From a virus (taxonomy: Duplodnaviria > Heunggongvirae > Uroviricota > Caudoviricetes): a stretch of DNA of 41,124 bases. Position numbers and translations under genes: made by a program. The notes under the pieces were generated by a model. That model ran no database searches and was not told the origin of the DNA. It saw only the letters and a list, made by a program, of their open reading frames with translations. Below, one piece after another: positions 1-41,124 of this stretch (its first letter is position 1; each line of letters opens with the position of its first letter). Where the stretch lies: positions 1 to 41,124 of the IMG/VR virus record IMGVR_UViG_2802429226_000008. The stretch is one strand, 5' to 3'.

Positions 1-1254
1 ATGCTGGAACAAATGGGCATTGCTGCGAAGCAAGCCTCGTATAAATTAGCGCAACTCTCCAGCCGCGAAAAAAATCGCGTGCTGGAAAAGATCGCTGATG
101 AGCTGGAAGCACAGAGCGAAAGCATCCTCGATGCTAACGCCCAGGATGTTGCTGACGCGCGTGCCAATGGCCTTAGCGAAGCGATGCTTGACCGTCTGGC
201 GTTAACGCCCGCGCGCCTGAAAGGCATTGCCGACGATGTGCGGCAGGTGTGTAATCTTGCCGATCCGGTAGGGCAGGTGATTGATGGAGGTGTGCTGGAC
301 AGCGGCCTGCGTCTGGAGCGTCGCCGCGTGCCGCTGGGTGTTATAGGTGTAATTTATGAAGCGCGTCCGAACGTGACAGTTGATGTCGCTTCGCTGTGTC
401 TGAAAACTGGTAACGCGGTGATCCTGCGCGGCGGCAAAGAAACCTGTCGCACTAACGCTGCAACGGTAGCGGTGATTCAGGACGCCCTGAAATCCTGCGG
501 TTTACCGGCAGGCGCAGTGCAGGCGATTGATAATCCGGATCGCGCACTGGTGAGTGAAATGCTGCGCATGGATAAATACATCGACATGTTGATCCCGCGT
601 GGTGGTGCTGGTTTGCATAAGCTGTGCCGCGAGCAGTCGACAATTCCGGTGATCACTGGCGGCATTGGCGTCTGCCATATTTACGTTGATGAAAGTGCTG
701 ACATTTCTGCAGCCCTGAAAGTGATCGTCAACGCGAAAACCCAGCGTCCGAGTACCTGCAATACGGTAGAAACGTTGCTGGTGAATAAAAACATCGCTGA
801 TAACTTCCTGCCTGCGTTAAGCAAGCAAATGGCGGAAAGCGGCGTGACGTTACACGCCGATGCTGCGGCACTGGCGCAGTTGCAGGCAGGATCTGCGAAA
901 GTGGTGGCTGTTAAGGCGGAAGAGTATGACGATGAATTCCTGTCGTTAGATTTGAACGTCAAAATCGTCAGCGATCTTGACGACGCCATCGCCCATATTC
1001 GTGAACACGGGACGCAACACTCCGATGCGATCCTGACGCGTGATATGCGCAATGCCCAGCGTTTTGTCAATGAAGTGGACTCCTCTGCTGTTTACGTTAA
1101 CGCGTCTACACGTTTCACCGACGGCGGCCAGTTTGGTCTTGGCGCGGAAGTGGCGGTAAGCACGCAAAAACTCCACGCACGCGGACCAATGGGGCTGGAA
1201 GCGCTGACCACCTACAAGTGGATCGGTATTGGTGATTACACCGTTCGTGCGTAA
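1..1254 (+). CDS. proA: gamma-glutamyl phosphate reductase (proline biosynthesis)
   Basis: 417-aa ORF starting at window position 1; protein matches my recollection of E. coli ProA along its length; proA is the known chromosomal neighbour of thrW. Confidence 0.93.
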
Positions 1255-1369: not shown

Positions 1370-1445
1370 GCCGATATAGCTCAGTTGGTAGAGCAGCGCA
1401 TTCGTAATGCGAAGGTCGTAGGTTCGACTCCTATTATCGGCACCA
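1370..1445 (+). tRNA. thrW: tRNA-Thr (anticodon CGU)
   Basis: 76-nt sequence GCCGATATAGCTCAGTTGGTAGAGC...GGTTCGACTCCTATTATCGGCACCA with anticodon loop cTTCGTAAt and 3' CCA; cloverleaf-compatible. Confidence 0.93.
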
Positions 1446-1459
1446 TTTAAATCAATAAG

Positions 1460-2623
1460 TTACACATCATTAGTACTTTCCTTATTTTTTGACTGGGACA
1501 AATTTGGGACCGATGGGTTCAGGATCGAGTCTATTTGCCGTGCGTGTTCGGTAAGGTGATTAGGTGCAAGGTGAGCATATCGACGAACCATTTCGATAGA
1601 CTCCCAGCCTCCCATTTCCTGTAACACTGACAACGGGACTCCGGCTTGAACCAGCCAACTTGCCCAGGTGTGTCTCAAGTCGTGAAATCTGAAATCATCA
1701 ATACCAGCCCGTCTCAGCGCCGCTTTCCAGGCTGTGTTTGCGTCATACCGCATCTTCCTTACTGTTGGCGCTTTCGTTCCGTCTGGTTTGGTACAGCTTT
1801 CCTTGTACACAAATACCCAACGGTGATGATTCCCGATTTGTTTTTTCAAAACGCGACATGCAGTATCATTCAGCGCAACGCCAATTGCGCGGTTTGATTT
1901 ACTCTCTTCCGGGTTTATCCATGCCACCCGGCGCTGCATGTCTATTTGTTGCCATTCAAGGTTGATGATGTTCGAGCGTCTTAAGCCTGTTGCCAGTGCA
2001 AATTCAACAACAGACTTTAATGGCTCCGGACATTCATCAATCAGCCTTTGTGCTTCATGGGGCTCCAGCCAGCGGATCCGTTTATTCTTTGGTTGAGGCA
2101 CTTTAATAATTGGTGCCTTATCCAGCATTTTCCATTCACGCTCTGCGGCTCTTAGTAGGGCCTTTATAAATGAAAGATGCGTAGCCTTCGTTGCAACGGA
2201 CGCTGGTTTTGGCGTGTATTCTGGAACAGGTTTCCCTTTTTTTCTGCATGCTTCTGCCCTGAGTCTCCAGTTTTCCTCATGACGCCGGTTCGTCATTTTC
2301 TGCATTGCTGAATAAATTTTTGATTCAGTAATGTCTCTTAGTTGCATTCCTGCGAAATGTTGAAGCCAGAATCCGATCCGGCTTTTGTCATCGTCCAGTG
2401 ATTTTTTATGTGCTTTCTCTTCAAGCCACCTGACACACGCTTCCTCGAACGTTATATCAGGTATTTCACCAAGTTTGCTGACCCGCCATGCTTCAGCCTT
2501 TAGCTTGTCATGGAGTTCTGTCGCCTGCCTTTTGTCCTTTGTTCCAAGAGACTGTTTAAATCTTTTACCGTTCGGCAATGTGAAACTGGCGTACCATATT
2601 TCACCTCTGCGGAAGAGTGACAT
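1460..2623 (-). CDS. int: phage integrase (tyrosine recombinase)
   Basis: 387 aa; C-terminal [10 protein letters not shown] and VRRYAHL tyrosine-recombinase motifs; ATG at 2623 with GAGGA SD; abuts tRNA. Confidence 0.93.
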
Positions 2624-2850
2624 TTTCTTTCCTCTGTTATGCCATCACCCGCGCTCACCTGGACAGTATGCAGCGGAGACTGAAGAGCCGCAATGCAGGC
2701 TTGTCGTGTTGTGAGGTAAGGAGATTTATTCTTAGTGGGATCTTTGCGTGTTGCCTGAAGACGCCCTGTGCGTATCCAGTTAATGGCAGTCGGTCTGGAT
2801 ATCTTGAGAAAATGACAGGCCTCATCGAGTGTGAGGCTGTATGGCTCCAT
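2500..2850 (-). CDS. excisionase-like HTH protein (putative Xis)
   Basis: ATG at 2850 preceded by GAGGTG SD; HTH segment [26 protein letters not shown]; overlaps the integrase 5' end as in lambda xis/int. Confidence 0.55.
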
Positions 2851-3155
2851 TATTTCACCTCTTGCTGTGACATTGTTGAAAAATGGATACCAGCTCGTTG
2901 CTGCCAGACGATCCAACCGAGAGTCATATCCCATGCCATGTATTCGTTATTGCCGTTTTTTGCTCTCCGACGATCTACTAAGTCACCGAAACGCTTTTCC
3001 ATGAATAATTCATAAGCTTCGCGTTCATCTGGTTCTACTTCCAGAGATAGGAGTGCGATTTCATAAGCACGGCGCTCAATATCGTCTCGCACGTCAAGGC
3101 TGCTGATACGCTCTTTAATTTCTTTAATCAGTTCTTTGTCGGTAAAAGTGGTCAT
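2850..3155 (-). CDS. hypothetical phage early protein
   Basis: 101-aa ORF; TAATG stop/start overlap with downstream gene at 2848..2852. Confidence 0.55.
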   Translation of the reverse strand: MTTFTDKELIKEIKERISSLDVRDDIERRAYEIALLSLEVEPDEREAYELFMEKRFGDLVDRRRAKNGNNEYMAWDMTLGWIVWQQRAGIHFSTMSQQEVK

Positions 3156-3517
3156 TATGCTCCAGCCTCCGGTGCTTTTGGCATTACTGCCCAGTGAGTG
3201 ATATTGACGTTTTCAAGGTCCCCGACCTGAAATGTCCACTGCCATTCTCCGGTTTCTTTTTGTCCCCAGGTGTACCAGAGAGAACGCCAACCAATTAGCC
3301 AGCCTTCTCCGTTAGCATCGAATAACAAAACACTTTCATTTGCTGGTGGCAGTTCAGTTGACACTGGTATTACTTTGTTTTCCTGTGCTGCACATTTAGC
3401 TTCAAGCGCATCGAATTTACGCACCAGGTATTCAGCATCTGTTTCATTTACTTTAAGATCTCGCGGTACACATCTCCCACGAAGAAACCCTTCCATTTCG
3501 AAAACATTCATGCGCAT
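3155..3517 (-). CDS. hypothetical phage early protein
   Basis: 120-aa ORF; TAATG coupling at 3153..3157; ATGA overlap with upstream gene. Confidence 0.55.
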   Translation of the reverse strand: MRMNVFEMEGFLRGRCVPRDLKVNETDAEYLVRKFDALEAKCAAQENKVIPVSTELPPANESVLLFDANGEGWLIGWRSLWYTWGQKETGEWQWTFQVGDLENVNITHWAVMPKAPEAGA

Positions 3518-4044
3518 TTGCGTAACTCCGATAACTCGTTAAAGCGTTCCATAAACATCCCGTAGGCATGGCCCGGTGCCAGTGGAATCACGTTGAACAT
3601 CTCTGTTGCCGGGATACCTTCCAGTACAGGCCAGAAAGAGCCATCATCAAGCCCGAGATCGCGGCGTTCGGTTGCCAGCATGATGAGATCGGCATATTTC
3701 ACGGGCGTACTCATAACTGGGGGTAATCCGTATTTCTCACGGATTACGGAGTCTATTTTTTCTTCCATTTGTTTATAGTCAGGAAGAAGGCGTTTCAGTG
3801 GTGCGGGAATGTCCTGGCAATACGCTTCTGTTGCATCATGCATTAACGCTTCAAAAGCAAATTCCTGCGGCACCAGCTGGCTGCAAAGAACCGCATGTTG
3901 GGCGACGCTGTAGAAGTGCGAAAGATGACCGGCAAAGCGACAGATATTTGAAAGGGAAACCGCGATATCGTTAATATCGATGTCGTCTTTATTTATCCTG
4001 TCATAATAAAAATGCTTCCCGGAAAAAGTTTTAATAAATGACAT
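3508..4044 (-). CDS. HD-domain phosphohydrolase (YfdR-like 5'-deoxynucleotidase family)
   Basis: H..H...HD motif (FAGHLSHF...HAV...LMHDATEAY); ATG at 4044 with GGAG SD (track start 4071 is a GTG). Confidence 0.7.
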   Translation of the reverse strand: MSFIKTFSGKHFYYDRINKDDIDINDIAVSLSNICRFAGHLSHFYSVAQHAVLCSQLVPQEFAFEALMHDATEAYCQDIPAPLKRLLPDYKQMEEKIDSVIREKYGLPPVMSTPVKYADLIMLATERRDLGLDDGSFWPVLEGIPATEMFNVIPLAPGHAYGMFMERFNELSELRKCA

Positions 4045-4171
4045 TTTGTTCTCCACGTATATGCGCTGCACCGCGCTGAATTCTGGTAAAAAGAATCCCT
4101 CACCATCCGGCGATTATTGAGTAAATTACGTTTTCATAAATGCCCCCGCAGGGGCATTTGCAGTAATGAAA

Positions 4172-4996
4172 TCAGGCGGTGAAAGTACCAATAAAGGTTT
4201 CTACTTTGCTGTCCTTGAATTTCTCAACAAGCAGATCACGAAATTCGTTAGCCATTTCTTCCTGCACCGCCTCCAGCTGAATAATGCGCAGAACCAGTAC
4301 CGGACGATCGCCAGTGATAATGCTGAGGCGTAATTTAAACGGACGTTCTTTCAGACCTTCAAACGGAATGCATTTAAATTCAAATGCCACTGGCATAATG
4401 TCTTTGGTCTTCGCTTCGACAGACTCCATCAGGGAGCGTTTGCCGCTGAAGTCATTATCTTCAAAATCAGCGGTCTGGTTTGCTTCAATCGTGATTTTAC
4501 GGACCGCCGCAGCCGCTTTTGTTGCCTGAATGGTGTCACCATTAGCATCAAAGCCCACAAGGTAGTCGGCCCAGTCTTCAATCCATTCTGCCAGTGATTT
4601 CTGGGAGTTACGCTCGCCATTAACAGACAACAGAGCAGAGAACGGTGCTGTCTTTTTCAGTTTGAGAGTGGCGGTGTTATCTGCGTGACCTGGTTCATCA
4701 ATAGTACCCAGGTTAAGCACACTGACGGCACGCATATTATCAGCATCGATAAAGCAGCGGGTGCCTTCATCTGCAAGATCTTTAGAATAACGGGTAAAGT
4801 CATCGATGCTGGCAGTGGAAAGCGCACCACGGAAACGGAAGCGATTTAAATTAAATTTTTCCAGATCATGAATGCGGAAATTCTCAGGCAATGCCACAGC
4901 ATCGGCACCAATCTTACTGATAATTTCATTAACACCCTGAGCAGAAATAAGGGCATGGATTTGATTAATTGCGGTTGCGTCTAAGTTCTGAGACAT
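4172..4996 (-). CDS. DUF2303 / YfdQ-like prophage protein
   Basis: 274-aa ORF with GAGGA SD; resemblance to CPS-53 YfdQ family from memory. Confidence 0.65.
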
Positions 4997-5061
4997 AATA
5001 AGTCCTCACTATATAAAGATATTCAGTGATGAGATAAATAATCAGTTAATTAAGAACGATA

Positions 5062-5424
5062 TTAATGACCTGCTGCGCGGAGTTTTCCGTCAGGTTCACC
5101 GGCAAGAGTCAGTAATTGTCCCTGGTCTTCCTGCAGAATAGTCAGGCGACCACCGCGATTGACATACATCGGCGTTTCGGTGGTGTCTTCTTCGGAAATT
5201 TTCCCGCGGTTAGTCGGGCGAACATATGAGAGTTTGTGTTTGATTTTCACACGGTTCTCATCAAATGGTTCGATTTCCAGGTTGAGTGAGACCTTACCTT
5301 TGGTTTTCGTGTTCATCACACCGGAAGCGACTTCACTGAGAACTGCGCCGATTTTGGTTTCAAATACGCCGCCGTCCAGCTCCCCGATAAATGCCTGCAC
5401 ATCAGTACTGCGTTCGCTAGCCAT
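5062..5424 (-). CDS. hypothetical phage protein (120 aa)
   Basis: ATG at 5424 with GAGGAG SD; upstream in-frame extension of track ORF to 5742 has junk-like composition. Confidence 0.6.
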   Translation of the reverse strand: MASERSTDVQAFIGELDGGVFETKIGAVLSEVASGVMNTKTKGKVSLNLEIEPFDENRVKIKHKLSYVRPTNRGKISEEDTTETPMYVNRGGRLTILQEDQGQLLTLAGEPDGKLRAAGH

Positions 5425-5861
5425 TTTGCTGCTCCTCATCATATCGACCCTGCAAGGCCGATTAGTTTCTCCACAAAACAGAGAAGAACACCTGCGGTAG
5501 CAGCCGCCCGGATGGATTGGGTTATGAGCCCGTCGTCCGGTGATGCTCTTCTCTGTTTTGTAAAAAGGACGGTACCAGCCGGAAGCAAGGGTACAAACTG
5601 GTACCGCCAGGACTACACACAGCATAAAGTTGTGGTGCCGGGTGCCTCCCGGTGCCTGGCGAAGGTTGCACACCAGACGGGTGGGTATCCACAGAAGGTC
5701 GACTGTCAGCCTCAACCTTAACCCGCGTGCGCTGAGCCGCATTCACCACAACGCTAAGGATTCTCTTTGGTTGAAAATACTTAGCTGTTATGTGCCTGTC
5801 TTTTCACCACTTCAGGCTCGGTGGTATCCTTTTAAGCCCGTATACATAAAAGGAAAATCAA

Positions 5862-6107
5862 ATGACTTTTGATGAAAAAGAACTTGATAATGCAATTAAT
5901 AAAATCATCGTAACGTCGCTCTTTTCCTGTCTCAGCGACACTCAGCAGAAACAGTTCTACGAATCGGCTTTCAACATGATCGAGCGTTGTTGTTTCTGCG
6001 ATGCCGACGAGTTACCTGAAAAAATCAGGAAACAGTTGGCTGATGCTCTTCGAGTGCGACTTTCTGACCAATTTTCTGAAATGTGCTCTCCGAATTTGGA
6101 CAAATAG
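5862..6107 (+). CDS. hypothetical small protein
   Basis: 81-aa ORF, AAGGA SD 9 nt upstream; convergently overlaps 6025..6300. Confidence 0.45.
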   Translation: MTFDEKELDNAINKIIVTSLFSCLSDTQQKQFYESAFNMIERCCFCDADELPEKIRKQLADALRVRLSDQFSEMCSPNLDK

Positions 6108-6300
6108 AAAAAGGCCATTTCCATTCAGGGTCTGATGGAAATACTTCAGCCTGTTCCAAAGCACGGCGTAAAGAGAACACAACTCCAGCCATAATCTGAT
6201 GTTTCCCATTGGTCCAGCTATCGCCGCTCTGATCTACAGGGGCGGCTATGTCGTATGACCAAACGACTTCACAGTTATTGTTTAAAATCTGGACTTTCAT
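6025..6300 (-). CDS. hypothetical small protein, first gene of leftward early operon
   Basis: ATG at 6300 with AGGTG SD; lies downstream of PL-like promoter. Confidence 0.45.
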   Translation of the reverse strand: MKVQILNNNCEVVWSYDIAAPVDQSGDSWTNGKHQIMAGVVFSLRRALEQAEVFPSDPEWKWPFSICPNSESTFQKIGQKVALEEHQPTVS

Positions 6301-6426
6301 TTCATACACCTGCTTTAACATGAGTGCCTAGTGGCACAACATGACTCAACGAATCATCCTGGACTTCATATGCCCCAGGCGGCTACTTCGTGGGCGTCCT
6401 GCCTGTTCGTTGTTTCGCTTGGGTAC

Positions 6427-6454
6427 ATTATGTATCTCAAAGGTACATTGTCAA
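6427..6454 (-). promoter_or_regulatory. PL-like sigma70 promoter (-35 TTGACA, 16-nt spacer, -10 CATAAT) with overlapping GTACA-type palindromes
   Basis: minus-strand reading of 6427..6454; palindrome TACAT-N-ATGTA at 6424..6434. Confidence 0.5.
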
Positions 6455-6457
6455 GTA

Positions 6458-6480
6458 TAAAAAAACCTGCCGAAGCAGGT
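6458..6480 (-). terminator. rho-independent terminator downstream of cI
   Basis: minus strand ACCTGCTTCGGCAGGT hairpin followed by a 7-T run. Confidence 0.7.
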
Positions 6481-6493
6481 TCATAAACATTGA

Positions 6494-7168
6494 TTAGGCT
6501 TTGATTTTGTATCTTCTTGGTTTTCCTGAGAAAATCACTGTACCAATTATAGAGCAATTACCGTTGATCTTAATGTAAGGCTCAGGCCAGTTTGGGTTTA
6601 ACGCTTTGAGATAACGCTGTGTCCCATCTTCTATCAACCTTTTGAAGGTGGTTTCGCCTGTATCGTGCATCAATGCAATAACGTCGTCACCGTGGCAGGC
6701 AGGTACTTCAGGATCGACAAAAATCATGTCTCCCGGGCGGTACTCATCAATCATTGAATCACCTATCACCCGCAAGATATAAGTCATTTCCCCACAGGGT
6801 ACAGGGCAGGGATACGTTTCTGCTGTGCTCAAATCAACCTCAGAATATCCAACTTCTTTCCATGCTCCGGCCTGTACCCATGATATGACAGGGACTAATG
6901 TGATTTGTTTATTAGTGATTGAAACATCAGGTTTTTTTGTGATGTTCGTTGTCTGGTGTTCTTGATCGAGCCATCCGACAGGCAGGTCGAAACATTTTTC
7001 GATGTGTCGTGCCATGCTGTCACCGATATTTTTAGTAGCACCATCTCCCATAAACCTGCTGGTCTGGGTTGGCTCGCGATCAATCATAGTGGCAAAGGAA
7101 GAATTCCCGCCAACACCATCTCTCAGTTTTCTGGCGTTAGACCGCCGGATGTCATGGATTGTTTTCAT
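6494..7168 (-). CDS. cI: CI-type prophage repressor (HTH-XRE N-domain, S24 LexA-like peptidase C-domain)
   Basis: 224 aa; C-terminal VIGDSM serine motif; no SD before ATG (leaderless-like); divergent from cro. Confidence 0.88.
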   Translation of the reverse strand: MKTIHDIRRSNARKLRDGVGGNSSFATMIDREPTQTSRFMGDGATKNIGDSMARHIEKCFDLPVGWLDQEHQTTNITKKPDVSITNKQITLVPVISWVQAGAWKEVGYSEVDLSTAETYPCPVPCGEMTYILRVIGDSMIDEYRPGDMIFVDPEVPACHGDDVIALMHDTGETTFKRLIEDGTQRYLKALNPNWPEPYIKINGNCSIIGTVIFSGKPRRYKIKA

Positions 7169-7258
7169 AACGAAATTAAAACCCTTGTACCGTTAAGGTA
7201 CAAGTATCTTGAAGGTTCATTTCAATCATGTAATATGTACACCGGAGGTACATATTGT
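7169..7258. promoter_or_regulatory. divergent PRM/PR promoter-operator region
   Basis: palindromes CTTGTACC-N5-GGTACAAG (7184..7204) and AATATGTAC-N7-GTACATATT (7232..7256); PR -35 TTGAAG 7209..7214, -10 TAATAT 7231..7236; PRM -35 (7198..7203) and -10 TTTAAT (7175..7180) on minus strand. Confidence 0.6.
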
Positions 7259-7490: not shown

Positions 7491-8054
7491 ATGAGGCTAA
7501 CCGTGGGTAAGCATCACTGGAAAATAGAAAAACAGCCTGAGTGGTACGTGAAAGCTGTCAGAAAAACTATCGCAAAGTTGCCGGGTGGTTACGCTGAAGC
7601 AGCTGACTGGCTGGATGTAACAGAGAACGCATTATTTAACCGCCTTCGTGCCGATGGCGATCAGATTTTCCCGCTGGGATGGGCAATGATTTTGCAACGT
7701 GCTGGTGGAACTCACTTCATTGCTGACGCAGTGGCGCAGTCTGCAAATGGCGTCTTTGTGTCTCTTCCTGACGTCGAGGATGTGGACAACGCCGATATTA
7801 ACCAGCGCCTGCTGGAAGTCATTGAACAGATCGGCAGTTATTCAAAACAGATTCGTTCAGCAATTGAAGACGGTGTAGTGGAACCGCATGAGAAGACAGC
7901 AATTAACGACGAGCTGTACCTCTCAATTTCGAAGCTGCAGGAGCATGCAGCACTGGTCTACAAAATTTTTTGCATTTCAGAAAGTAATGACGCCCGCGAG
8001 TGTGCAGCTCCGGGCGCCGTGGCGTGTCGTGACTGTGGAGAAACTAACGCATGA
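7491..8054 (+). CDS. putative early regulatory protein (CII/YdaT-position; function uncertain)
   Basis: 187-aa ORF immediately after cro. Confidence 0.5.
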
Positions 8055-8389
8055 ACAGTTTAACAACACACTACCGTCGCTCGCAACTGATTGCGCTTCC
8101 TGTACCGGGTGGAAAAGCGAAGGTGGAGTATTGCTATGCAGTAAATGTACCAGGTGACAGGGAAATTGTAACCCACAGCTTTGCAGAGTGGGCTGTGGGT
8201 GATTTCAACCGGCAGAAGGAGACAGTCCTTTGCGACAAGTTAACCGCTGGTTCAAAGATCACTACGGAGTGCCCGTCAGAGTCATTCGTTGGGAGCCGGA
8301 AACACAACGTGTTATCTACCTCCGCGAAGGCTATGAGCATGAGTGCTTCAGCCCGCTCGAACAGTTTCGTCGTAAATTCAGGGAAATAG
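8051..8389 (+). CDS. hypothetical protein; 3' half probably read in wrong frame (see finding)
   Basis: 112-aa track ORF; C-terminal third is Ser-rich junk-like while alternate frame 8203..8409 reads protein-like. Confidence 0.35.
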
Positions 8390-8398
8390 AGGTCGGTC

Positions 8399-9340
8399 AT
8401 GAGCACTAAATTAACCGGCTATGTATGGGATGGTTGCGCTGCATCAGGCATGAAATTATCCAGCGTGGCAATTATGGCCCGCCTGGCTGATTTCAGTAAT
8501 GACGAAGGTGTGTGCTGGCCATCAATTGAAACCATTGCCCGCCAGATTGGCGCGGGGATGAGTACCGTCAGAACGGCTATCGCACGGCTGGAAGCAGAAG
8601 GCTGGTTAACGCGTAAGGCGCGTCGCCAGGGTAACCGCAATGCGTCGAATGTTTATCAGCTTAACGTTGCGAAGCTTCAGGCAGCGGCATTTTCTCAACT
8701 GTCAGATTCTGACCCGTCAAAATCTGACGCATCAAAATCTGACCCGTCAAAATTTGATGCGTCGAAATCTGGCAAAAAAGCGGGTTTTCACCCGTCAGAA
8801 TCTGGCGGGGATCCGTCAGTAAAATCAAAACATGATCCGTCAGATAAAAAAACTTCTCGTCCGGACGCTTCGCAACCGGACACGCAGACGGCTGAACAGG
8901 AGTTTTTAACTCGCCATCCTGATGCGGTTGTATTCAGCCCTAAAAAGCGCCAGTGGGGAACGCAGGATGATTTGACCTGCGCACAGTGGCTCTGGAAAAA
9001 AATCATCGCCCTGTACGAGCAGGCCGCCGAATGTGACGGCGAGGTGGTTCGTCCCAAAGAACCGAACTGGACAGCCTGGGCAAACGAAATTCGCCTGATG
9101 TGTGTGCAGGATGGTCGTACTCACAAACAAATCTGCGAGATGTACAGCCGCGTCAGCCGCGATCCGTTCTGGTGCCGTAACGTGCTCAGCCCGTCGAAGC
9201 TGCGGGAAAAATGGGATGAGCTTTCCCTGCGCTTATCGCCGTCCGTCAGCACGTACACAGAAAAACGCGAAGACCCGTACTTCAAAGCCAGTTACGACAA
9301 CGTGGACTACAGCCAGATCCCGGCAGGATTCAGGGGGTGA
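8399..9340 (+). CDS. replication initiation protein (lambda O-like, N-terminal wHTH), contains iteron array
   Basis: 313 aa; N-terminal HTH region; internal DPSKSDASKSDPSKFDASKSG repeat reflecting DNA iterons. Confidence 0.8.
   Translation: MSTKLTGYVWDGCAASGMKLSSVAIMARLADFSNDEGVCWPSIETIARQIGAGMSTVRTAIARLEAEGWLTRKARRQGNRNASNVYQLNVAKLQAAAFSQLSDSDPSKSDASKSDPSKFDASKSGKKAGFHPSESGGDPSVKSKHDPSDKKTSRPDASQPDTQTAEQEFLTRHPDAVVFSPKKRQWGTQDDLTCAQWLWKKIIALYEQAAECDGEVVRPKEPNWTAWANEIRLMCVQDGRTHKQICEMYSRVSRDPFWCRNVLSPSKLREKWDELSLRLSPSVSTYTEKREDPYFKASYDNVDYSQIPAGFRG
8702..8806. repeat. iteron array (putative replication origin), 15-bp periodic direct repeats TCAAAATCTGAC, followed by an AT-rich tract
   Basis: copies at 8702, 8717, 8732, 8747, 8762 and 8795; A-rich segment 8820..8850. 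Confidence 0.7.
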
Positions 9341-9342
9341 TC

Positions 9343-9831
9343 ATGAGTCTTTTGAATGAAGTTCAGAAATTCATTGAAGCCCATCCGGGGTGTACTTCCG
9401 GAGACATTGCGGATGCTTTTGCAGGTTACTCACGGCAGCGCGTTCTGCAGTCAGCAAGCAAGTTACGTCAGAGTGGGCGTGTGGCTCACCGTTGTGAAGG
9501 AGATACACGCAGACATTTCCCACGCCTGACTGAGAGAGCGCAGGAGCCGGAACCACAACCAGTTCGTGAAACCAGACCTGTGCGCAATTTCTATGTCGGC
9601 ACTAACGATCCCCGGGTGATTTTGTGCCTGACCCGCCAGGCGGAAGAATTGGAGTCCAGGGGCTTATACCGTCGTGCTGCAACGGTGTGGATGGCGGCAT
9701 TCCGTGAAAGCCACTCCCAGCCAGAACGAAACAATTTTCTGGCGCGTCGTGAGCAGTGTTTACGGAAAAGCAGCAAGCGCGCTGTATCGGGTGATGAGTG
9801 GTATCTGTCAGGGAATTACGTGGGGGCTTAA
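9343..9831 (+). CDS. hypothetical phage protein (possible winged-helix N-terminus)
   Basis: ATG at 9343 (track start 9337 is GTG); TAATG overlap with next gene. Confidence 0.55.
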   Translation: MSLLNEVQKFIEAHPGCTSGDIADAFAGYSRQRVLQSASKLRQSGRVAHRCEGDTRRHFPRLTERAQEPEPQPVRETRPVRNFYVGTNDPRVILCLTRQAEELESRGLYRRAATVWMAAFRESHSQPERNNFLARREQCLRKSSKRAVSGDEWYLSGNYVGA

Positions 9832-10484
9832 TGAGTAATAAATATTGCCAGGAGCTGGTGGAACTGCGGAACAAACCAGCCCATGAACTGAAGGAAGTGG
9901 GTGATCAGTGGCGCACGCCGGACAACATTTTCTGGGGAATTAACACCCTGTTTGGCCCGTTTGTTCTGGATCTGTTTACTGACGGTGATAACGCCAAATG
10001 TGCTGCGTATTACACGGCGGAAGACAACGCGCTGGCGCATGACTGGTCAGAACGTCTTGCGGAGCTTAAAGGGGCTGCCTTTGGTAATCCCCCATACAGC
10101 CGCGCCAGTCAGCATGAGGGGCAATACATCACCGGCATGCGTTACATCATGAAACATGCCAGTGCCATGCGTGATAAGGGCGGGCGCTATGTTTTCTTGA
10201 TCAAAGCTGCCACCAGCGAAGTGTGGTGGCCGGAAGATGCAGATCATATTGCTTTTATTCGCGGGCGTATTGGTTTTGAACTGCCTGTCTGGTTTATCCC
10301 GAAAGACGAGAAGCAGGTACCGACAGGAGCTTTTTTCGCTGGTGCTATTGCTGTTTTTGACAAGACCTGGAAGGGACCGGCAATCAGCTACATCGGGCGC
10401 GATGAACTTGAGGCATGTGGTGAGGCGTTTCTGGCGCAGGTTCGCCAGCAGGCGGAAAAACTGGTCAGGGAGATGGCGGCATGA
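9831..10484 (+). CDS. phage DNA N6-adenine methyltransferase (orphan Dam-like)
   Basis: NPPY motif (GNPPYS); ATG at 9831 overlapping upstream stop. Confidence 0.82.
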   Translation: MSNKYCQELVELRNKPAHELKEVGDQWRTPDNIFWGINTLFGPFVLDLFTDGDNAKCAAYYTAEDNALAHDWSERLAELKGAAFGNPPYSRASQHEGQYITGMRYIMKHASAMRDKGGRYVFLIKAATSEVWWPEDADHIAFIRGRIGFELPVWFIPKDEKQVPTGAFFAGAIAVFDKTWKGPAISYIGRDELEACGEAFLAQVRQQAEKLVREMAA

Positions 10485-10807
10485 CGATGTTAACTCAATG
10501 CCAGCAGCAGGTGCTGGATATGCTGATTTCTTACCAAAAAGAACGTGGCTTCCCGCCAACCAATCAGGAGGTGGCAACCATGCTGGGATACCGTTCAGTG
10601 AATGCAGCGGTAGAACATCTTCGCGCACTGGAGAAAAAAGGCGTCATCACGATAAAGCGTGGCGTGGCCCGGGGCATCACGCTTCATACCGTGGTGAAGG
10701 ACGACGACAGCGAGGCGGTCGGGATTATCCGCTCACTGCTTGCCGGTGAGGAAAACGCCAGGCTGCGTGCAGCCCACTGGTTACATGAGAGGGGCCTGAA
10801 AGTATGA
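10481..10807 (+). CDS. LexA-N-terminal-like DNA-binding protein
   Basis: 108 aa; ATGA overlap; GGAG SD; winged-helix-like N-terminus. Confidence 0.55.
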   Translation: MTMLTQCQQQVLDMLISYQKERGFPPTNQEVATMLGYRSVNAAVEHLRALEKKGVITIKRGVARGITLHTVVKDDDSEAVGIIRSLLAGEENARLRAAHWLHERGLKV

Positions 10808-11193
10808 AGCTGATCTTGCCTTTCCCGCCCAGCGTGAACACGTACTGGCGACACCCCAATAAAGGGGCGTTTGCAGGTAAGAGCCTGATAAGCGCGGCGG
10901 GGCGCAAATTCCAGAGCGCGGCGTGTGCAGCAATAGTTGAGCAGTTACGTCGTCTGCCAAAACCAACGTCGGCACCTGCTTCAGTGGAGATCGTGTTGTT
11001 TCCTCCGGATAACCGGATCCGCGATCTGGACAACTATAACAAGGCGCTGTTTGACGCCCTGACCCACGCGGGTGTGTGGGAAGACGACAGTCAGGTGAAA
11101 AGAATGCTGGTGGAGTGGGGACCGGTTATCCCGGAAGGGAAGGTCGAGATCACTATCAGTAAGTACGAGAAAACGGCGGGTGCAGCCGCCTGA
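10804..11193 (+). CDS. rusA: RusA Holliday-junction resolvase
   Basis: 129 aa; LPFPPSVNTYWRH and RDLDNYNKALFDALT...EDDSQV motifs typical of RusA. Confidence 0.88.
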   Translation: MKLILPFPPSVNTYWRHPNKGAFAGKSLISAAGRKFQSAACAAIVEQLRRLPKPTSAPASVEIVLFPPDNRIRDLDNYNKALFDALTHAGVWEDDSQVKRMLVEWGPVIPEGKVEITISKYEKTAGAAA

Positions 11194-11212
11194 TTAAGAG
11201 GAGAAACGAAGT

Positions 11213-12010
11213 ATGAATAATCTGATGGTCATTGATGGTATTGAAGTTCGTCGTGATGCTTATGGGCGTTACAGCCTGAACGATCTGCACAGGGCTGCCG
11301 GTTCTCTGGATAAGCATAAGCCTGCATTCTGGCTCCGCAATGAGCAAACTGAACGTTTAATAAGCGAGTTGCAGATTTGCAACTCGGTCAATATAGAGCC
11401 AGTTAACGTTATTCGTGGCGGAAATAACCAGGGGACGTATGTCTGCAAAGAACTGGTGTATGCCTATGCAATGTGGATCAGCCCGTCATTCCATCTGAAG
11501 GTGATCCGTACTTTCGACATGGTAACCAGCGCACCTGAAAAATTATCCGGACAGGCTGCTGACAAGATGCAGGCTGGCGTGATTCTGCTGGACTTTATGC
11601 GCCGGGAGTTAAATCTGTCTAACTCTTCAGTGCTTGGAGCCTGTCAGAAACTTCAGGAGGCTGTTGGCTTACCGAATCTGGCACCGCGCTATGCCATTGA
11701 TGCTCCTGCTGATGCACACGATGGCTCAAGTCGCCCGACACTGTCACTGAGTGCACTGCTGAAACAGTATGGTATCCGCCTGACGGCTAATCAGGCATAT
11801 CACCAGATGGTGAAGCTGGGGATCGTCGAGCAGCGCGAACGATACAGCCGTACCGCGATTAACAACATCAAAAAATTCTGGTCGCTGACAGCGAAAGGTT
11901 GCATGTTCGGCAAGAACATCACCAGTCCCGCAAATCCGCGCGAGACGCAGCCGCATTTCTTCGAATCCCGATTCCCTGAGCTGTTAAAGCTGCTCGATAC
12001 CGTTCATTGA
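11213..12010 (+). CDS. KilA-N domain protein (putative antirepressor-like)
   Basis: 265 aa; strong AGGAG SD; N-terminal KilA-N-like segment. Confidence 0.7.
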   Translation: MNNLMVIDGIEVRRDAYGRYSLNDLHRAAGSLDKHKPAFWLRNEQTERLISELQICNSVNIEPVNVIRGGNNQGTYVCKELVYAYAMWISPSFHLKVIRTFDMVTSAPEKLSGQAADKMQAGVILLDFMRRELNLSNSSVLGACQKLQEAVGLPNLAPRYAIDAPADAHDGSSRPTLSLSALLKQYGIRLTANQAYHQMVKLGIVEQRERYSRTAINNIKKFWSLTAKGCMFGKNITSPANPRETQPHFFESRFPELLKLLDTVH

Positions 12011-12011
12011 G

Positions 12012-13007
12012 GTGACCGTGAGAGCACTACTGACCCCTGAAATTGCCCCGCGTATGGGGATCGTATTGTTCAGGCCAGGTTCAGAGCTGATGCCCTTGTT
12101 TATGCAGGGGCGTGTCCTGCTGGAGCCTGAGCCGGAACGTTATTCATCTTTCGCCAGTGGTGCCGTTCCGGCGGCATCACAACCGCTGGCGGATGATCCT
12201 GCCGTTCGGGCCGTGTTCCGCAATGAGGCAGTGATCCGTCGTGCTGGTGGCGTGGAATGTCTTGAAAGCTGGTTACTTCGTGAAAAAGGCTGCCAGTGGC
12301 CTCATTCCGGCTGGCACAGCGAGAACATGACCACAATGCGACACGCGCCGGGCGCAATCCGTCTGTGCTGGCACTGTGATAACCAGCTGCGCGATCAGTT
12401 CACGGAACGGCTGGAATCAATGGCAACGGATAACTGTGCCCGGTGGGTGTTATCTGTCGTGCGTCGGGATCTCGGTTTTAATGATAGTCACGTTGTGACA
12501 ATGCCGGAACTGTGCTGGTGGCTGGTTCGTAATGACTTGGCGGATGCCTTACCGGAAAGTGCAGCCCGTAAGGCACTGAGATTACCGAAGCCTGTTGTGC
12601 CGTCTGTCACCCGGGAAAGTGACCTTGTGCCTTCGGTTCCTGCCACCAGCATCATCCAGGATAAAGCGAAAAAGGTGCTGGCGCTGAAAGTGGATCCGGA
12701 GTCGCCGGAGTCTTTTATGTTACGCCCAAAACGTCGCCGCTGGGTTAATGAAAAGTACACGCGCTGGGTTAAGACACAGCCGTGTGCATGTTGTGGAAAG
12801 CCTGCTGATGATCCCCACCACCTGATAGGCCACGGTCAGGGGGGAATGGGTACAAAAGCGCATGACCTCTTTGTGTTGCCTTTGTGCAGAAAGCATCACG
12901 ACGAACTGCATGCGGATACCGTGGCATTTGAAGAGATGTATGGCTCCCAACTGGAGCTGATATTTCGTTTTATCGATCGTGCGCTGGCAATTGGCGTACT
13001 GGCGTAA
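12012..13007 (+). CDS. DUF968-family prophage protein (YdfU-like)
   Basis: 331 aa; C-terminal Cys/His-rich CACCGK...HHLIGHG...CRKHHDELH; start codon uncertain (GTG at 12012). Confidence 0.65.
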   Translation: MTVRALLTPEIAPRMGIVLFRPGSELMPLFMQGRVLLEPEPERYSSFASGAVPAASQPLADDPAVRAVFRNEAVIRRAGGVECLESWLLREKGCQWPHSGWHSENMTTMRHAPGAIRLCWHCDNQLRDQFTERLESMATDNCARWVLSVVRRDLGFNDSHVVTMPELCWWLVRNDLADALPESAARKALRLPKPVVPSVTRESDLVPSVPATSIIQDKAKKVLALKVDPESPESFMLRPKRRRWVNEKYTRWVKTQPCACCGKPADDPHHLIGHGQGGMGTKAHDLFVLPLCRKHHDELHADTVAFEEMYGSQLELIFRFIDRALAIGVLA

Positions 13008-13020
13008 GTGGAGAACGAGC

Positions 13021-13773
13021 ATGAACCTTGAAGCCTTACCAAAATATTACTCCCCAAAATCTCCAAAATTGAGCGATGACGCACCGGCGACAGGCTCAGG
13101 TGGTTTAACGATTACGGATGTGATGGCTGCGCAGGGGATGGTGCAGTCGAAAGCACCGCTTGGGTTTGCCTTATTCCTGGCAAAAGTTGGTGTTCAGGAT
13201 CCTCAGTTTGCGATTGAAGGTCTGCTCAATTACGCGATGGCACTGGATAACCCGACATTGAACAAATTGAGTGAAGAAATCCGGTTACAGATCATCCCTT
13301 ACCTTGTGAATTTTGCCTTTGCTGATTATTCCAGGTCTGCGGCAAGTAAGGCTCGCTGTGAGCATTGTGCTGGTACTGGATTTCATAATGTATTGCGCGA
13401 GGTGGTGAAGCACTCCAGAAGCGGGGAATCTGTTATCAAGGAAGAGTGGGTGAAGGAACTATGTCAGCATTGTCATGGTAAGGGAGAAGTCAGCACAGCG
13501 TGCAGAGGGTGTAAGGGTAAAGGTATTGTCCTGGATGAAAAAAGGACCCGGCTTCATGGCACACCTGTTTATAAGATTTGTGGGCGTTGCAATGGAAAAC
13601 GGTTTAGTCGTTTACCAACCACACTGGCGCGGCATCATGTCCAGAAGCTGGTACCGGACCTGACTGATTATCAGTGGTACAAAGGATATGCAAATGTCAT
13701 TGATAAACTGGTTACAAAGTGCTGGCAGGAGGAATCTTACGCTGAAGCACAATTGAGAAAGGTGACGAGATAA
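13021..13773 (+). CDS. late-gene antiterminator Q-like protein
   Basis: 250 aa; paired CxxC zinc-finger motifs (CEHCAGTG, CQHCHGKG, CRGCKGKG, CGRCNG); position just upstream of lysis genes. Confidence 0.78.
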   Translation: MNLEALPKYYSPKSPKLSDDAPATGSGGLTITDVMAAQGMVQSKAPLGFALFLAKVGVQDPQFAIEGLLNYAMALDNPTLNKLSEEIRLQIIPYLVNFAFADYSRSAASKARCEHCAGTGFHNVLREVVKHSRSGESVIKEEWVKELCQHCHGKGEVSTACRGCKGKGIVLDEKRTRLHGTPVYKICGRCNGKRFSRLPTTLARHHVQKLVPDLTDYQWYKGYANVIDKLVTKCWQEESYAEAQLRKVTR

Positions 13774-16099: not shown

Positions 16100-16176
16100 A
16101 GGATATGATGATTATCTTCTTTTTGGAAGAAGATAATGTAAATTTGATTTTATTATAACACTCTACCTAAATAAAA

Positions 16177-16200
16177 GGCTCGCACAGGCGAGCCTTTTCC
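16177..16200 (+). terminator. rho-independent terminator after cargo operon
   Basis: GGCTCGC-ACAG-GCGAGCC hairpin followed by TTTTCC. Confidence 0.6.
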
Positions 16201-38313: not shown

Positions 38314-41124
38314 TTATTTTTTTAGAGATTGCATTCGTTCATTGAATATGTCCAATGTGTCTTGAAATTCAACAAAGCCTCTATCCTTTATAAGGCTTTT
38401 AATTAAGTTAGGAAAATCACTTTCTACACCAGCTGTAATGAAATCTAACTCGCCTAATTTATTCGGGATGTTTTCAGAAACAAATTTGTTAATAACCTCA
38501 AGAAATTGATCAGGCATGGCACATCCGCTTGCGACTAAATGCAAACATTCCATAATATCGCTTACTGTTGCCAGTGGTAGGTTTAAAATATTACTGTTAA
38601 TAAACTTGTCTATAATGTCAACGACCTCAGGAGAGCCAATCCTTTTGATGTTCAATAATAAACTCTTAGTGATGGATCTTTTCCACTTATCATCAAATAA
38701 TTGTATTTTTGTTAACGCTAATGTTAATAGTTCAGTGTTTTTGTATTCGTAATTATGATTCTCTGATAATATGTAAATGTTTCGTAAGATATTGGAGTTA
38801 ATTACATGCTGGTCATAACCATTTAACTCTCCTGTATTGATTTTTATAAGTATTACATCCAGGATTTTTAACATATCATCATGGGATTTTTGATACAAAA
38901 ACTCATTCACAGCTAGAAGATTATGTATGTTTTCATAAATATTTATGTTATTAGTTCTGCCTTCTAACAAAGGAAGCAAACCATTTATTATTTTCTTTAA
39001 CTGGTTTGAACTCCACGGAACACATCCTAATATAATCAATAAATTATTGGTCCATCGATCTATTGAAGTGGTATGAATAAAATTTTTATTTTTCAACCTA
39101 ATCAGGTTGCATATGTTTTCGAGAGAGTTGAGTAAATATTTCTTAATATGGTGAACTTCTCTTTTGTCAAGTTTGCTGGTGCTGATTATTATTTTGTCTT
39201 TTATTACCTTACTTAAAAATTTTTTGAGTTTTTCTGTCTCGCAGTATTTTATTAACATAAATAGATCGATTCTATTAACATAGAATATCTCTTCGCATAG
39301 ATAGTGTTCGAGGCTACTAAGAATATTAAATTCGAAAAATTGTTTAACCTCTTTATATTCTTCAATTAAAATTTCGTTGCCTAAAATGAAATACACATAA
39401 GGGTACAGTTTCGCTCTTGTTTTAAATTCATCATTGGAAAATGCTATTCCACCACTCTTTCTTATTTGTGAGTACCCTAAATTCTTCTTCGATTCAACGT
39501 CAAATCGATAGTAAGCTTTGTATATTTCATTAAATTCAAGCATCTTTACTAATTCTTGTAGCTCACTTTGCACCCCCCGTGGAAAATCAATTATTTTACT
39601 TTTAAACTCAAATGGAGTATGGCTTTCCATTATTGATTTACAATCTTCATCAATGTCCTTACCGTTACAGTGTAAATCCGACTTCAACATCCTGTAAGCA
39701 TAATCAAAATTAGACATGTGAATGGTGGCGAGAATATAGTTTCTCTCATTAAGATGAAGCTTTACTTTCGAAATAAGAATATCGAGAAGTTTGCCATATT
39801 CCTTGTTAATAAGAAGTATTTCAGCATTATCCTTTGAATAAGCGAAAGAAATCTTATTGTATAGCTCAGACTCTAATTCTGAAGAACTAATCACCTCATA
39901 CAGTTTCGAGTCATAACTAACTGTATTTATAAATGCCTTTTCCAAAATAGATGAGAATGTCTTTTTTAAGTGAGTATTTTTACTCAAAATGTCATTAAGG
40001 TATATGCTATTTATTTTCCTGCTATACTCGTCATAATCAGTCGTCAAAATATTATTGTGGGAGGTTAGTTTAACCCCAGACTTATCATAATCAATGGTAC
40101 TATTAGTTAATTTTTTACTGATCTGCTCAGGGAGCAATACTTTGTATTGTGTTAATGCTTTTAGTTTGCTATCAACATATTTATTTATTTTTTTTGTTAC
40201 AATACATTGAATATCATTCTTCAATTTATTTTTATCAAAATCAGACATTCTCAGGTCATCTTCTATTTTTTTTACCTTTGACTCAGTATAGATTAGGGTC
40301 CTCTTTATAAACTCATCTTGGTTTTTAACAAGCTTGAAATCACTGAAAAATTTTGAATAAAGATCATGATAGCTAATGTCAGTATTCATCGGTGTCAACA
40401 AGGATATCCCATGATTTCTTAAGTAAAGAGCCTGGGCTGCATCATGATTTTTCTGGAGCAAATATTTTCTTGGTGTTGCTTTTGATATAGTTGTAACCCA
40501 TGAAACAATCTGTTTTAAATCATAATCACTATAAGAGTATCCTAAAAACACAACAGTGTTTGTTGAGAATATTCCTTTTATAAAATTTTCGATAAGTGGA
40601 AAATTTTGGCTGTACTGTAAGTAATCATCCTCTTTAAAAACAAAATTATTCTGTCGAAAATCCCCATGCATCTTTATAATTTTCTTGTCCAAATGACTTT
40701 GTGCCAGGTCCACGTCAGAACTAACTAAATCATAAGCCAATCCTATGTCTTGTGCAGTTTTTTCAAGCAAACTATCCCAGTTGGTTGTAATTATATAGTG
40801 GGGGTTTAATTCAAATAGCATCTTATGAAAAAGACTTGGTTTCAAATCTCTAATTATTGATTTGACTTTTTTAACATAAGAGTTTTGTCCGTATTGAAGA
40901 AAGTAAAGTTGGGCTATTTTTAAATAATCATTTTCTTCAGACAATCCTAAGTCGTCTTTTAGCTCATTTATTAACTCCCTCCAGGTTGGTATTTTTATTA
41001 ATTCCGTTTCGCTGAATTTAGAAAAACCAGCACCAATAAAAAGAACTAACTTATTATCTTGACTGGCATTCAATATTTCGTTCAAGTCATATTCAGAAAA
41101 AGAAAGTGGATTTAAATTTATCAT
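38314..41124 (-). CDS. SIR2-domain protein (936 aa), candidate NAD+-depleting antiphage defense protein (DSR/ThsA-like N-domain, unknown C-domain)
   Basis: N-terminal GAGFS (31-35), TTNWD (N115), KMHGD (H153), FLGYSYSD motifs; AT-rich codon usage; ATG exactly at window edge. Confidence 0.78.
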   Translation of the reverse strand: MINLNPLSFSEYDLNEILNASQDNKLVLFIGAGFSKFSETELIKIPTWRELINELKDDLGLSEENDYLKIAQLYFLQYGQNSYVKKVKSIIRDLKPSLFHKMLFELNPHYIITTNWDSLLEKTAQDIGLAYDLVSSDVDLAQSHLDKKIIKMHGDFRQNNFVFKEDDYLQYSQNFPLIENFIKGIFSTNTVVFLGYSYSDYDLKQIVSWVTTISKATPRKYLLQKNHDAAQALYLRNHGISLLTPMNTDISYHDLYSKFFSDFKLVKNQDEFIKRTLIYTESKVKKIEDDLRMSDFDKNKLKNDIQCIVTKKINKYVDSKLKALTQYKVLLPEQISKKLTNSTIDYDKSGVKLTSHNNILTTDYDEYSRKINSIYLNDILSKNTHLKKTFSSILEKAFINTVSYDSKLYEVISSSELESELYNKISFAYSKDNAEILLINKEYGKLLDILISKVKLHLNERNYILATIHMSNFDYAYRMLKSDLHCNGKDIDEDCKSIMESHTPFEFKSKIIDFPRGVQSELQELVKMLEFNEIYKAYYRFDVESKKNLGYSQIRKSGGIAFSNDEFKTRAKLYPYVYFILGNEILIEEYKEVKQFFEFNILSSLEHYLCEEIFYVNRIDLFMLIKYCETEKLKKFLSKVIKDKIIISTSKLDKREVHHIKKYLLNSLENICNLIRLKNKNFIHTTSIDRWTNNLLIILGCVPWSSNQLKKIINGLLPLLEGRTNNINIYENIHNLLAVNEFLYQKSHDDMLKILDVILIKINTGELNGYDQHVINSNILRNIYILSENHNYEYKNTELLTLALTKIQLFDDKWKRSITKSLLLNIKRIGSPEVVDIIDKFINSNILNLPLATVSDIMECLHLVASGCAMPDQFLEVINKFVSENIPNKLGELDFITAGVESDFPNLIKSLIKDRGFVEFQDTLDIFNERMQSLKK

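Follow-up and report, generated by a model that had tools for sequence, protein, structure and literature searches.

The yfdPQRST cassette of an SfV-type prophage: a candidate module for host-replication takeover with a conserved structured spacer after yfdQ

The window analysed in this study is the whole 41,124-nucleotide (nt) stretch of IMG/VR virus record IMGVR_UViG_2802429226_000008, and all coordinates refer to it unless another record is named. It carries an apparently complete lambdoid prophage at thrW, of the type of Shigella flexneri phage SfV, in which two consecutive minus-strand open reading frames (ORFs) had been flagged by a first-pass annotation. It was found that these ORFs correspond to two prophage genes that are already known and named, yfdQ and yfdR, in their SfV-type alleles. 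They belong to a cassette with the order yfdP-yfdQ-structured spacer-yfdR-yfdS-yfdT, which lies downstream of a leftward promoter, PL, controlled by CI operators. The hairpin between the two ORFs is helix 1 of a conserved three-helix element of approximately 130 nt with strong covariation. The explanation that we favour is that the cassette serves the takeover of host replication and that the spacer RNA uncouples yfdPQ from the downstream genes; taken as a whole, we regard this account as evenly balanced between being right and being wrong. Among the roles considered, host-replication takeover was the best supported and nucleotide-pool manipulation came second, whereas anti-defence was without support.

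The cassette genes, all on the minus strand, are yfdP (5062..5424, 120 aa, PF27127 in newer Pfam releases), yfdQ (4172..4996, 274 aa, DUF2303), yfdR (3508..4044, 178 aa, HD-domain phosphohydrolase), yfdS (3155..3517, 120 aa, DUF551, overlapping the end of yfdR by 10 nt) and yfdT (2850..3155, 101 aa). The CPS-53 (KpLE1) prophage of Escherichia coli K-12 has the same five genes in the same order, and its proteins were 95-99% identical to those of the window: 119/120 residues for YfdP, 270/274 (98.5%) for YfdQ, 173/178 (97%) for YfdR, 115/120 for YfdS and 96/101 for YfdT. The spacer between yfdQ and yfdR is also 127 nt long in K-12, and the hairpin is identical. However, the K-12 cluster resides at argW in a prophage that has decayed and no longer has PL, cI or the late genes, whereas PL and its operators are present in the window. 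At the DNA level, positions 2800-5800 were 99.7% identical to orf28-32 of SfV (U82619 / NC_003444), which are labelled as unknown or hypothetical in the SfV record. YfdQ was 100% identical to its SfV counterpart and the arrangement of int, xis and cI was shared, whereas the early-right replication region of the window was unlike SfV orf37-39. A match to positions 2800-5800 was found in 3844 of 5426 complete E. coli genomes (about 70%), and the RefSeq gene names at these matches were yfdP, yfdQ, yfdR ('5'-deoxynucleotidase') and yfdS. A scan of viral contigs returned only loci that were 99-100% identical, with preserved synteny of YfdP (78/78) and YfdR (77/77), and thus added no diversity.

The first-pass annotation had described both genes as poorly characterised. 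This description could not be maintained, because the proteins are 97% and 98.5% identical to K-12 YfdR and YfdQ, for which a link to DnaA has been published (PMC4776307). The flagged pair in itself adds little, since its genes are named, occur this often in E. coli and have been connected with DnaA in print. What remains of interest is what the cassette does in a live phage, the very widespread pair of YfdP and YfdQ, and an RNA after yfdQ that is apparently undescribed.

The proposed location in an early leftward operon and the accessory nature of both genes agreed with their position in a lambdoid SfV-type prophage. A PL-like promoter (TTGACA-16-CATAAT, 6454..6427, minus strand), which matched the consensus at 11 of 12 positions, was found just downstream of a terminator-like hairpin of cI (6463..6482). 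It is overlapped by two 17-bp operator-like palindromes (OL; 6431-6447 and 6411-6427), and three palindromes of the same TGTAyC-N5-GGTACA type are situated at OR between cI and cro (7186..7253). The five palindromes (6411..6454; 7186..7253) probably represent the CI operators that go with this immunity type; the CI-type repressor itself, with an S24-peptidase domain, is encoded at 6494..7168. Because the cassette is read leftward from a CI-repressed PL, it should be expressed on induction or infection.

YfdR and the proposed takeover of host replication

The evidence for takeover comes from the literature on the K-12 proteins. The K-12 cluster was first isolated as a multicopy suppressor of hda-185, and purified YfdR was shown to bind DnaA, with Phe46 in DnaA domain I being important for binding, and to inhibit DiaA-DnaA and DnaB-DnaA binding moderately (PMC4776307). 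Initiation at oriC was inhibited by multicopy yfdQRS or yfdQRT in wild-type, hda-185, dnaAcos, seqA and diaA backgrounds, and oriC replication in vitro was inhibited by extracts oversupplied with YfdQRST. The authors named SfV orf29-31 as homologues and proposed a role like that of lambda P (PMC4776307).

The YfdR of the window differs from K-12 YfdR by five substitutions (R16K, D23V, Q92R, S99A and E170D) and, given this level of identity and the flanking yfdQ and yfdS, belongs to the same orthologous group. Phe46-dependent binding to DnaA domain I is predicted for it from the K-12 protein. Lambda P, Bacillus subtilis SirA, E. coli DiaA and Dps likewise bind DnaA and alter initiation, and SirA and DiaA use the same domain-I patch as YfdR (Phe46; Phe49 in B. 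subtilis). However, these modulators are unrelated to YfdR in sequence and fold, and lambda P binds domain III, so the analogy is functional only. The YfdR-DnaA story is now set in an apparently intact, PL-controlled SfV-type prophage, where takeover can be tested, unlike in the decayed K-12 copy.

The favoured explanation combines this literature with what was observed here, namely, identity, synteny, active-site residues, PL with its operators, the yfdP-yfdQ pairing and RNA covariation. For the role of the cassette during phage growth, we infer the following course. On induction, transcription from PL would yield YfdR, which would occupy the Phe46 patch of DnaA domain I in competition with DiaA and the DnaB helicase, and YfdR together with YfdQ and YfdS or YfdT would stop new initiation at host oriC. 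The block of the DnaA-DnaB interaction may also leave host DnaB and DnaC for the phage origin, because the phage has a single initiator-like protein and no recognisable helicase or loader: no recombination (Rec) module, helicase gene or helicase-loader gene could be recognised in the prophage, where the early-right region (7491..13773) was examined. A weak deoxynucleoside monophosphate (dNMP) phosphatase activity of YfdR would probably be secondary or ancestral, since the HD active site is complete. YfdQ would act as a stand-alone protein of approximately 30 kDa that is encoded together with the small protein YfdP.

Several points weigh against this explanation. Deletion of yfdQRST gave no phenotype, and the authors conceded that an over-expression artefact was possible; YfdR alone inhibited only moderately; YfdQ, YfdS and YfdT did not bind strongly to YfdR or DnaA; and all replication phenotypes came from the over-expressed cluster of a cryptic prophage, not from a live SfV-type phage (PMC4776307). 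Among ten diverse phages whose hosts are Salmonella, E. coli, Vibrio, Pseudomonas, Xanthomonas and Acinetobacter, only three had a YfdR-type HD gene within 3 kb of yfdQ, and the distant Vibrio, Xanthomonas and Acinetobacter phages carried yfdP-yfdQ without such a gene. Therefore, the core function of YfdQ is not tied to YfdR. In addition, the oligomeric state of YfdQ is known only for a homologue of approximately 38% identity, described below, from which we infer that of the YfdQ of the window, and the RNA element is known here from sequence alone.

The main competing role is nucleotide-pool manipulation, which the first-pass annotation had suggested; on this view, YfdR would be mainly a 5'-deoxynucleotidase that acts on dNMPs from the breakdown or turnover of host DNA and rebalances the precursors for the phage. 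The assignment of the ORF at 3508..4044 to the HD phosphohydrolases held, as shown by the ORF itself, the H..HD..D residues and a match to PHROG 318 (4e-110). The ORF starts at the ATG that RefSeq and K-12 also use; an alternative GTG start at 4071 would make the protein 187 aa long. Residues H39, H49, H68-D69, E72, D77 and D118 were invariant in 31 relatives, and H49, H68-D69, E72, D77 and D118 aligned with H33, H68-D69, E72, D77 and D137 of YfbR. The metal-binding residues of the HD superfamily (H49, H68-D69 and D118), together with E72 and D77, are thus all present. The closest solved structure by sequence was that of the HD protein Atu1052 (2gz4, 9e-14), which, like YfbR (PDB 2paq), shares with YfdR the HD fold and the residues for metal binding and catalysis (H, HD, E, D, D).

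These intact residues speak for nucleotide-pool manipulation, as do the names in RefSeq and PHROG, which call YfdR a 5'-deoxynucleotidase or dNMP phosphatase, and the recurrence of YfdR-type HD genes downstream of yfdPQ. Such genes were found in Enterobacterales, where they were adjacent to yfdQ in 48 of 73 species-level loci (about two thirds) and within 3 kb of it in 53 of 73, and in two Pseudomonas phages. However, YfdR was only 22% identical to YfbR. It scored 25.1 bits against a cut-off of 25.9 bits for the Pfam YfbR-like family PF12917 and 20.4 bits against 122 bits for the NCBIfam YfbR equivalog NF003009. In the alignment, all YfdR-type proteins had a gap of seven residues where YfbR has LINRWPL, a segment that presumably holds the substrate-binding residues Arg18 and Trp19. 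Moreover, a dNMP phosphatase would drain the precursors of DNA rather than supply them. The nucleotide affinities of K-12 YfdR lie far below YfbR's, according to a second-hand statement in the paper that describes its additional DnaA-binding activity (PMC4776307). Thus, the catalytic site is intact, while the reported low affinity, the gap and the sub-threshold scores count against it, and a role mainly in the nucleotide pool appears unlikely.

The YfdP-YfdQ pair

As had been annotated, the 274-aa protein encoded at 4172..4996 belongs to DUF2303. It matched Pfam PF10065 over its full length (residues 7-272) with an E-value of 8e-92 and 307.7 bits, the gathering score being 26.6. The family comprises 1788 clusters at 50% identity; no domain fusions were found among the top 150 representatives, all of which were 265-288 aa long except for fragments. 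A YfdP homologue was encoded immediately upstream of yfdQ in all ten diverse phages and directly upstream in 78 of 79 cases drawn from 80 species-level bacterial loci. The two genes thus form a module, in which yfdP, on the upstream side, and not the HD gene, is the constant companion of DUF2303. This partner had been missed by the first-pass annotation, as had the larger structured spacer of which the stem-loop forms one helix. DUF2303 is better studied together with YfdP than with the HD protein, with the solved homologue as a guide.

This homologue is the entry 'YfdQ Protein' in the PDB (9o7m, 274 aa, 36 chains), which matched YfdQ over the full length with an E-value of 2e-44 in a single-sequence search and 9e-58 in a profile search. 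It shares 98.8% sequence identity with a protein from Xanthomonas phage MET23-P3, which is CP2-like and virulent. In phage CP2, yfdQ is preceded by a YfdP homologue (39% identity, E=8e-18) and followed by a DUF1351-like gene and genes for Erf, the YqaJ exonuclease, an HNH protein and a single-stranded DNA-binding protein (SSB). The solved protein and the YfdQ of the window therefore share the family, the size of 274 aa and the upstream YfdP homologue; they differ in that they are only about 38% identical and that the solved one comes from a virulent phage in which yfdQ is not followed by an HD gene. A full-text literature search found no relevant paper on 9O7M, and structure searches with AlphaFold models of YfdQ and YfdP gave no informative relative. 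A DUF2303 protein co-purified with the virions of Burkholderia phage JC1, which could simply reflect a very large assembly.

Elsewhere, the neighbours of yfdPQ are often genes for SSB, annealing proteins and exonucleases, and on this account the pair was placed in DNA-metabolism modules. It might be supposed from this that YfdP and YfdQ constitute a cryptic recombination or DNA-end module, in which a ring or filament of the two proteins binds DNA and replaces the missing Rec module. In agreement with this, no Rec module is recognisable in the prophage, Erf, RecT and exonuclease genes are found beside yfdPQ in other phages, and the deposition of 9o7m with 36 chains indicates a large assembly. 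However, the cluster co-exists with complete Rec modules in phages TL-2011c (RecT, exonuclease, Gam and SSB) and CP2 (Erf, YqaJ and SSB). A survey of lambdoid phages from 2025 likewise reported that the three-gene cluster is common in early-left operons with or without a Rec module and that ArgO145 has both the cluster and a complete Rec module, and its authors judged a hidden recombination role to be unlikely (PMC12315714). In addition, neither YfdP nor YfdQ is basic (isoelectric points of 5.0 and 5.7), and neither resembled the annealing proteins Rad52, Red-beta, Erf and RecT in fold or sequence. We consider a recombination role to be distinctly improbable.

An anti-defence role, in which the HD and/or DUF2303 protein degrades a nucleotide second messenger or sequesters an effector, is the least probable of all and hardly credible: the early accessory position, the ability of HD domains of other families to hydrolyse cyclic nucleotides, the large homo-oligomers typical of 'sponge' proteins and the plaques of another resident phage triggered by YfdQ production in K-12 (one preprint) would fit it, but PADLOC, whose library consists of defence rather than anti-defence proteins, gave no match for YfdP, YfdQ, YfdR, YfdS or YfdT, no link was found in a literature search, the nearest HD relatives are of the monophosphatase type (YfbR and Atu1052) and not of the HD-GYP or phosphodiesterase type, and E. 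coli strains carry the genes extremely often, even retaining them in a decayed cryptic prophage.

The structured spacer after yfdQ

The hairpin reported between the two genes proved to be real. It consists of a perfect 9-bp stem and a 4-nt loop on the minus strand (AAAUGCCCC-UGCG-GGGGCAUUU), although its coordinates are 4138..4159 and the span of 4136..4163 given earlier was slightly too wide. The stem is GC-rich and starts 13 nt past the yfdQ stop codon. The window contained nine perfect hairpins with a stem of at least 9 bp, compared with 0.78 +/- 0.82 in 40 dinucleotide shuffles. Of 80 species-level loci, 76 had a hairpin no more than 70 nt from the stop codon of yfdQ, and a strong hairpin followed this codon in 10 of 11 diverse loci, the sequences being unrelated. 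A rank test of the hairpin energies gave a p value of about 1e-7, which overstates the specificity because the control comprised all sequence blocks and not intergenic ones only. Among the other perfect hairpins, one of 9 bp was located inside the yfdR coding sequence (3723..3747), and two of 11 bp lay close together at 16111..16137 and 16173..16198.

The hairpin is only the first part of a longer element. Conservation in Enterobacterales covered the entire spacer, which is 126-139 nt long and reaches from the stop codon of yfdQ to where the next gene starts. On the minus strand of the window, its order is helix 1 (4138..4159, the stem-loop itself), GUGAAGCGUAAUU, helix 2 (4100..4113, UCGCC-GGAU-GGUGA, followed by the invariant motif GGGAUU), AGGGAUUCGUGCAACCAAAA, helix 3 (4062..4076, a short GC stem that closes the conserved loop GUGCAG) and the ribosome-binding site GGAGAA, with the Shine-Dalgarno sequence GGAG at 4051..4054. 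When 25 sequences were aligned with plain MAFFT, 95.8% of the cells paired, compared with 42-61% when the partners were slid; eight pairs had compensatory changes, and none of 500 shuffles reached this level. The covariance model R1 scored 121.6 bits in the window (4040..4171, minus strand) and detected 43 distinct loci with 52-149 bits, one copy per locus and always directly after yfdQ. In the alignment to this model, which leans towards structure because it is fitted to the model, 98.9% of the cells were paired and 11 of 18 pairs showed compensatory changes, a level that again none of 500 shuffles reached.

The distribution of the element differed from that of yfdR. It was present in SfV and in K-12 (NC_000913.3 2474857..2474988), whereas phage TL-2011c, with a YfdQ of 52% identity, lacked it. 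Mangrovibacter and Kosakonia loci keep the element with a gene other than yfdR in the next position, and it therefore travels with yfdQ. In five Mangrovibacter and Kosakonia prophages, the genes after the spacer encode proteins of 106-221 aa unrelated to YfdR and start with MNMPLTDMPLEEL or MRQELASMTIIEL. Since unrelated genes follow the spacer, its position is a point of module exchange.

It was considered whether the stem-loop is no more than a common intrinsic terminator, or a palindrome that arose by chance, in the gap between the genes. The perfect GC-rich stem shortly after the stop codon is compatible with a terminator, and a hairpin with a U-run occurs at the same place in the distant phages VvAW1, Mystique and 1.232.O. 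However, the stem in the window is trailed by AUGAAAAC and has no U-tract, and it was not among the sites returned by a terminator scan that required at least 5 T in 8. The covarying pairs of helix 1 include GC<->CG exchanges, and covariation extends to the A-U pairs at the stem base, with AU<->UA exchanges in 12-13 sequences; therefore, pairing rather than U-richness was selected. Two further covarying helices and invariant single-stranded motifs extend up to the next start codon. Approximately 30 G.U cells against 8 non-pairs in the covariance-model alignment favour an RNA that is read on the sense strand. Helix 1 is thus unlikely to be a classical terminator, and neither a terminator nor a chance palindrome is a probable explanation of the stem-loop.

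In the favoured explanation, the three-helix RNA would most likely uncouple the expression of yfdPQ from that of the downstream genes by acting as a stability barrier or a weak attenuator, and the remainder of the element would be a leader for the next gene. More specifically, we propose tentatively, and at less than even probability, that the spacer of approximately 130 nt is an undescribed cis-acting regulatory RNA of enterobacterial prophages that controls the next gene through binding by a protein, attenuation or processing, alongside YfdP-YfdQ as a widespread phage machine. Invariant GGA motifs (AGGGAUUC after helix 2 and GGAGAA some 45 nt further on; 4051..4099) resemble a two-site CsrA target, and from their sequence they suggest a possible target of this type. 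In Vibrio phage VvAW1, a gene for a CsrA homologue lies two genes upstream of the yfdP-yfdQ pair (3816..4028 of its examined stretch), and CsrA occurs together with a DUF2303 protein in Burkholderia phage JC1.

Searches of the spacer with Rfam scored only STnc100 (RF02076), at 17.3 bits against a gathering threshold of 47 bits; five related loci had no gathering-level match at the spacer site, and in the rest of the window no family except tRNA reached its threshold. The spacer partly resembles STnc100, as both show a GC hairpin and, after it, a GGGUUC...ACC segment. However, membership was rejected, as the score is far below the threshold and genuine copies of STnc100 are located in the late regions of phages, such as downstream of stx2. 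The segment before helix 1 was not accepted as boxA/boxB (nut-like) because the E. coli variant lacks the GCUCUG-like stretch. We also dismissed a small spacer ORF, which reads ATG AAA ACG TAA in the window, since it is not conserved and the indels in loop length are not multiples of three. Consequently, the fresh item of this analysis is a conserved three-hairpin RNA with good covariation and no Rfam match at the gathering threshold, at a locus that is present in K-12. In the early region of Salmonella phage ST64B, a C4 antisense RNA (79.7 bits) was found beside isrK (64.3 bits) at 1611..1799 (minus strand) of the stretch examined, inside the part annotated as sb41.

Layout of the prophage

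At the left edge of the window lies the end of proA (1..1254), followed by a tRNA-Thr(CGU) gene (1370..1445) that adjoins both proA and the integrase gene. The tyrosine integrase is encoded directly beyond the tRNA gene (1460..2623, minus strand), and an excisionase-like (xis-like) gene with an HTH_17 domain follows at 2500..2934 of the same strand, next to the cassette. On the other side of the cassette, a stretch of approximately 440 nt upstream of yfdP (within 5425..6107) has no convincing ORF. The first ORF downstream of PL is the equivalent of SfV orf33 (6025..6321, minus strand, 98 aa), for which family searches gave no match; an 81-aa ORF on the plus strand (5862..6107) overlaps its 3' end convergently.

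The early-right genes encode a CII-like protein, one HTH_36 replication protein, PerC, Dam, a LexA-like protein, RusA, KilA-N, DUF968 and a Q antiterminator. The HTH_36 replication protein (8399..9340) has peptide repeats of the SKSD/PSKSD type in its middle, and the corresponding direct DNA repeats (approximately 8700..8790) may be origin iterons. Close to the right edge of the window, an ORF of 936 aa occupies 38314..41124 on the minus strand.

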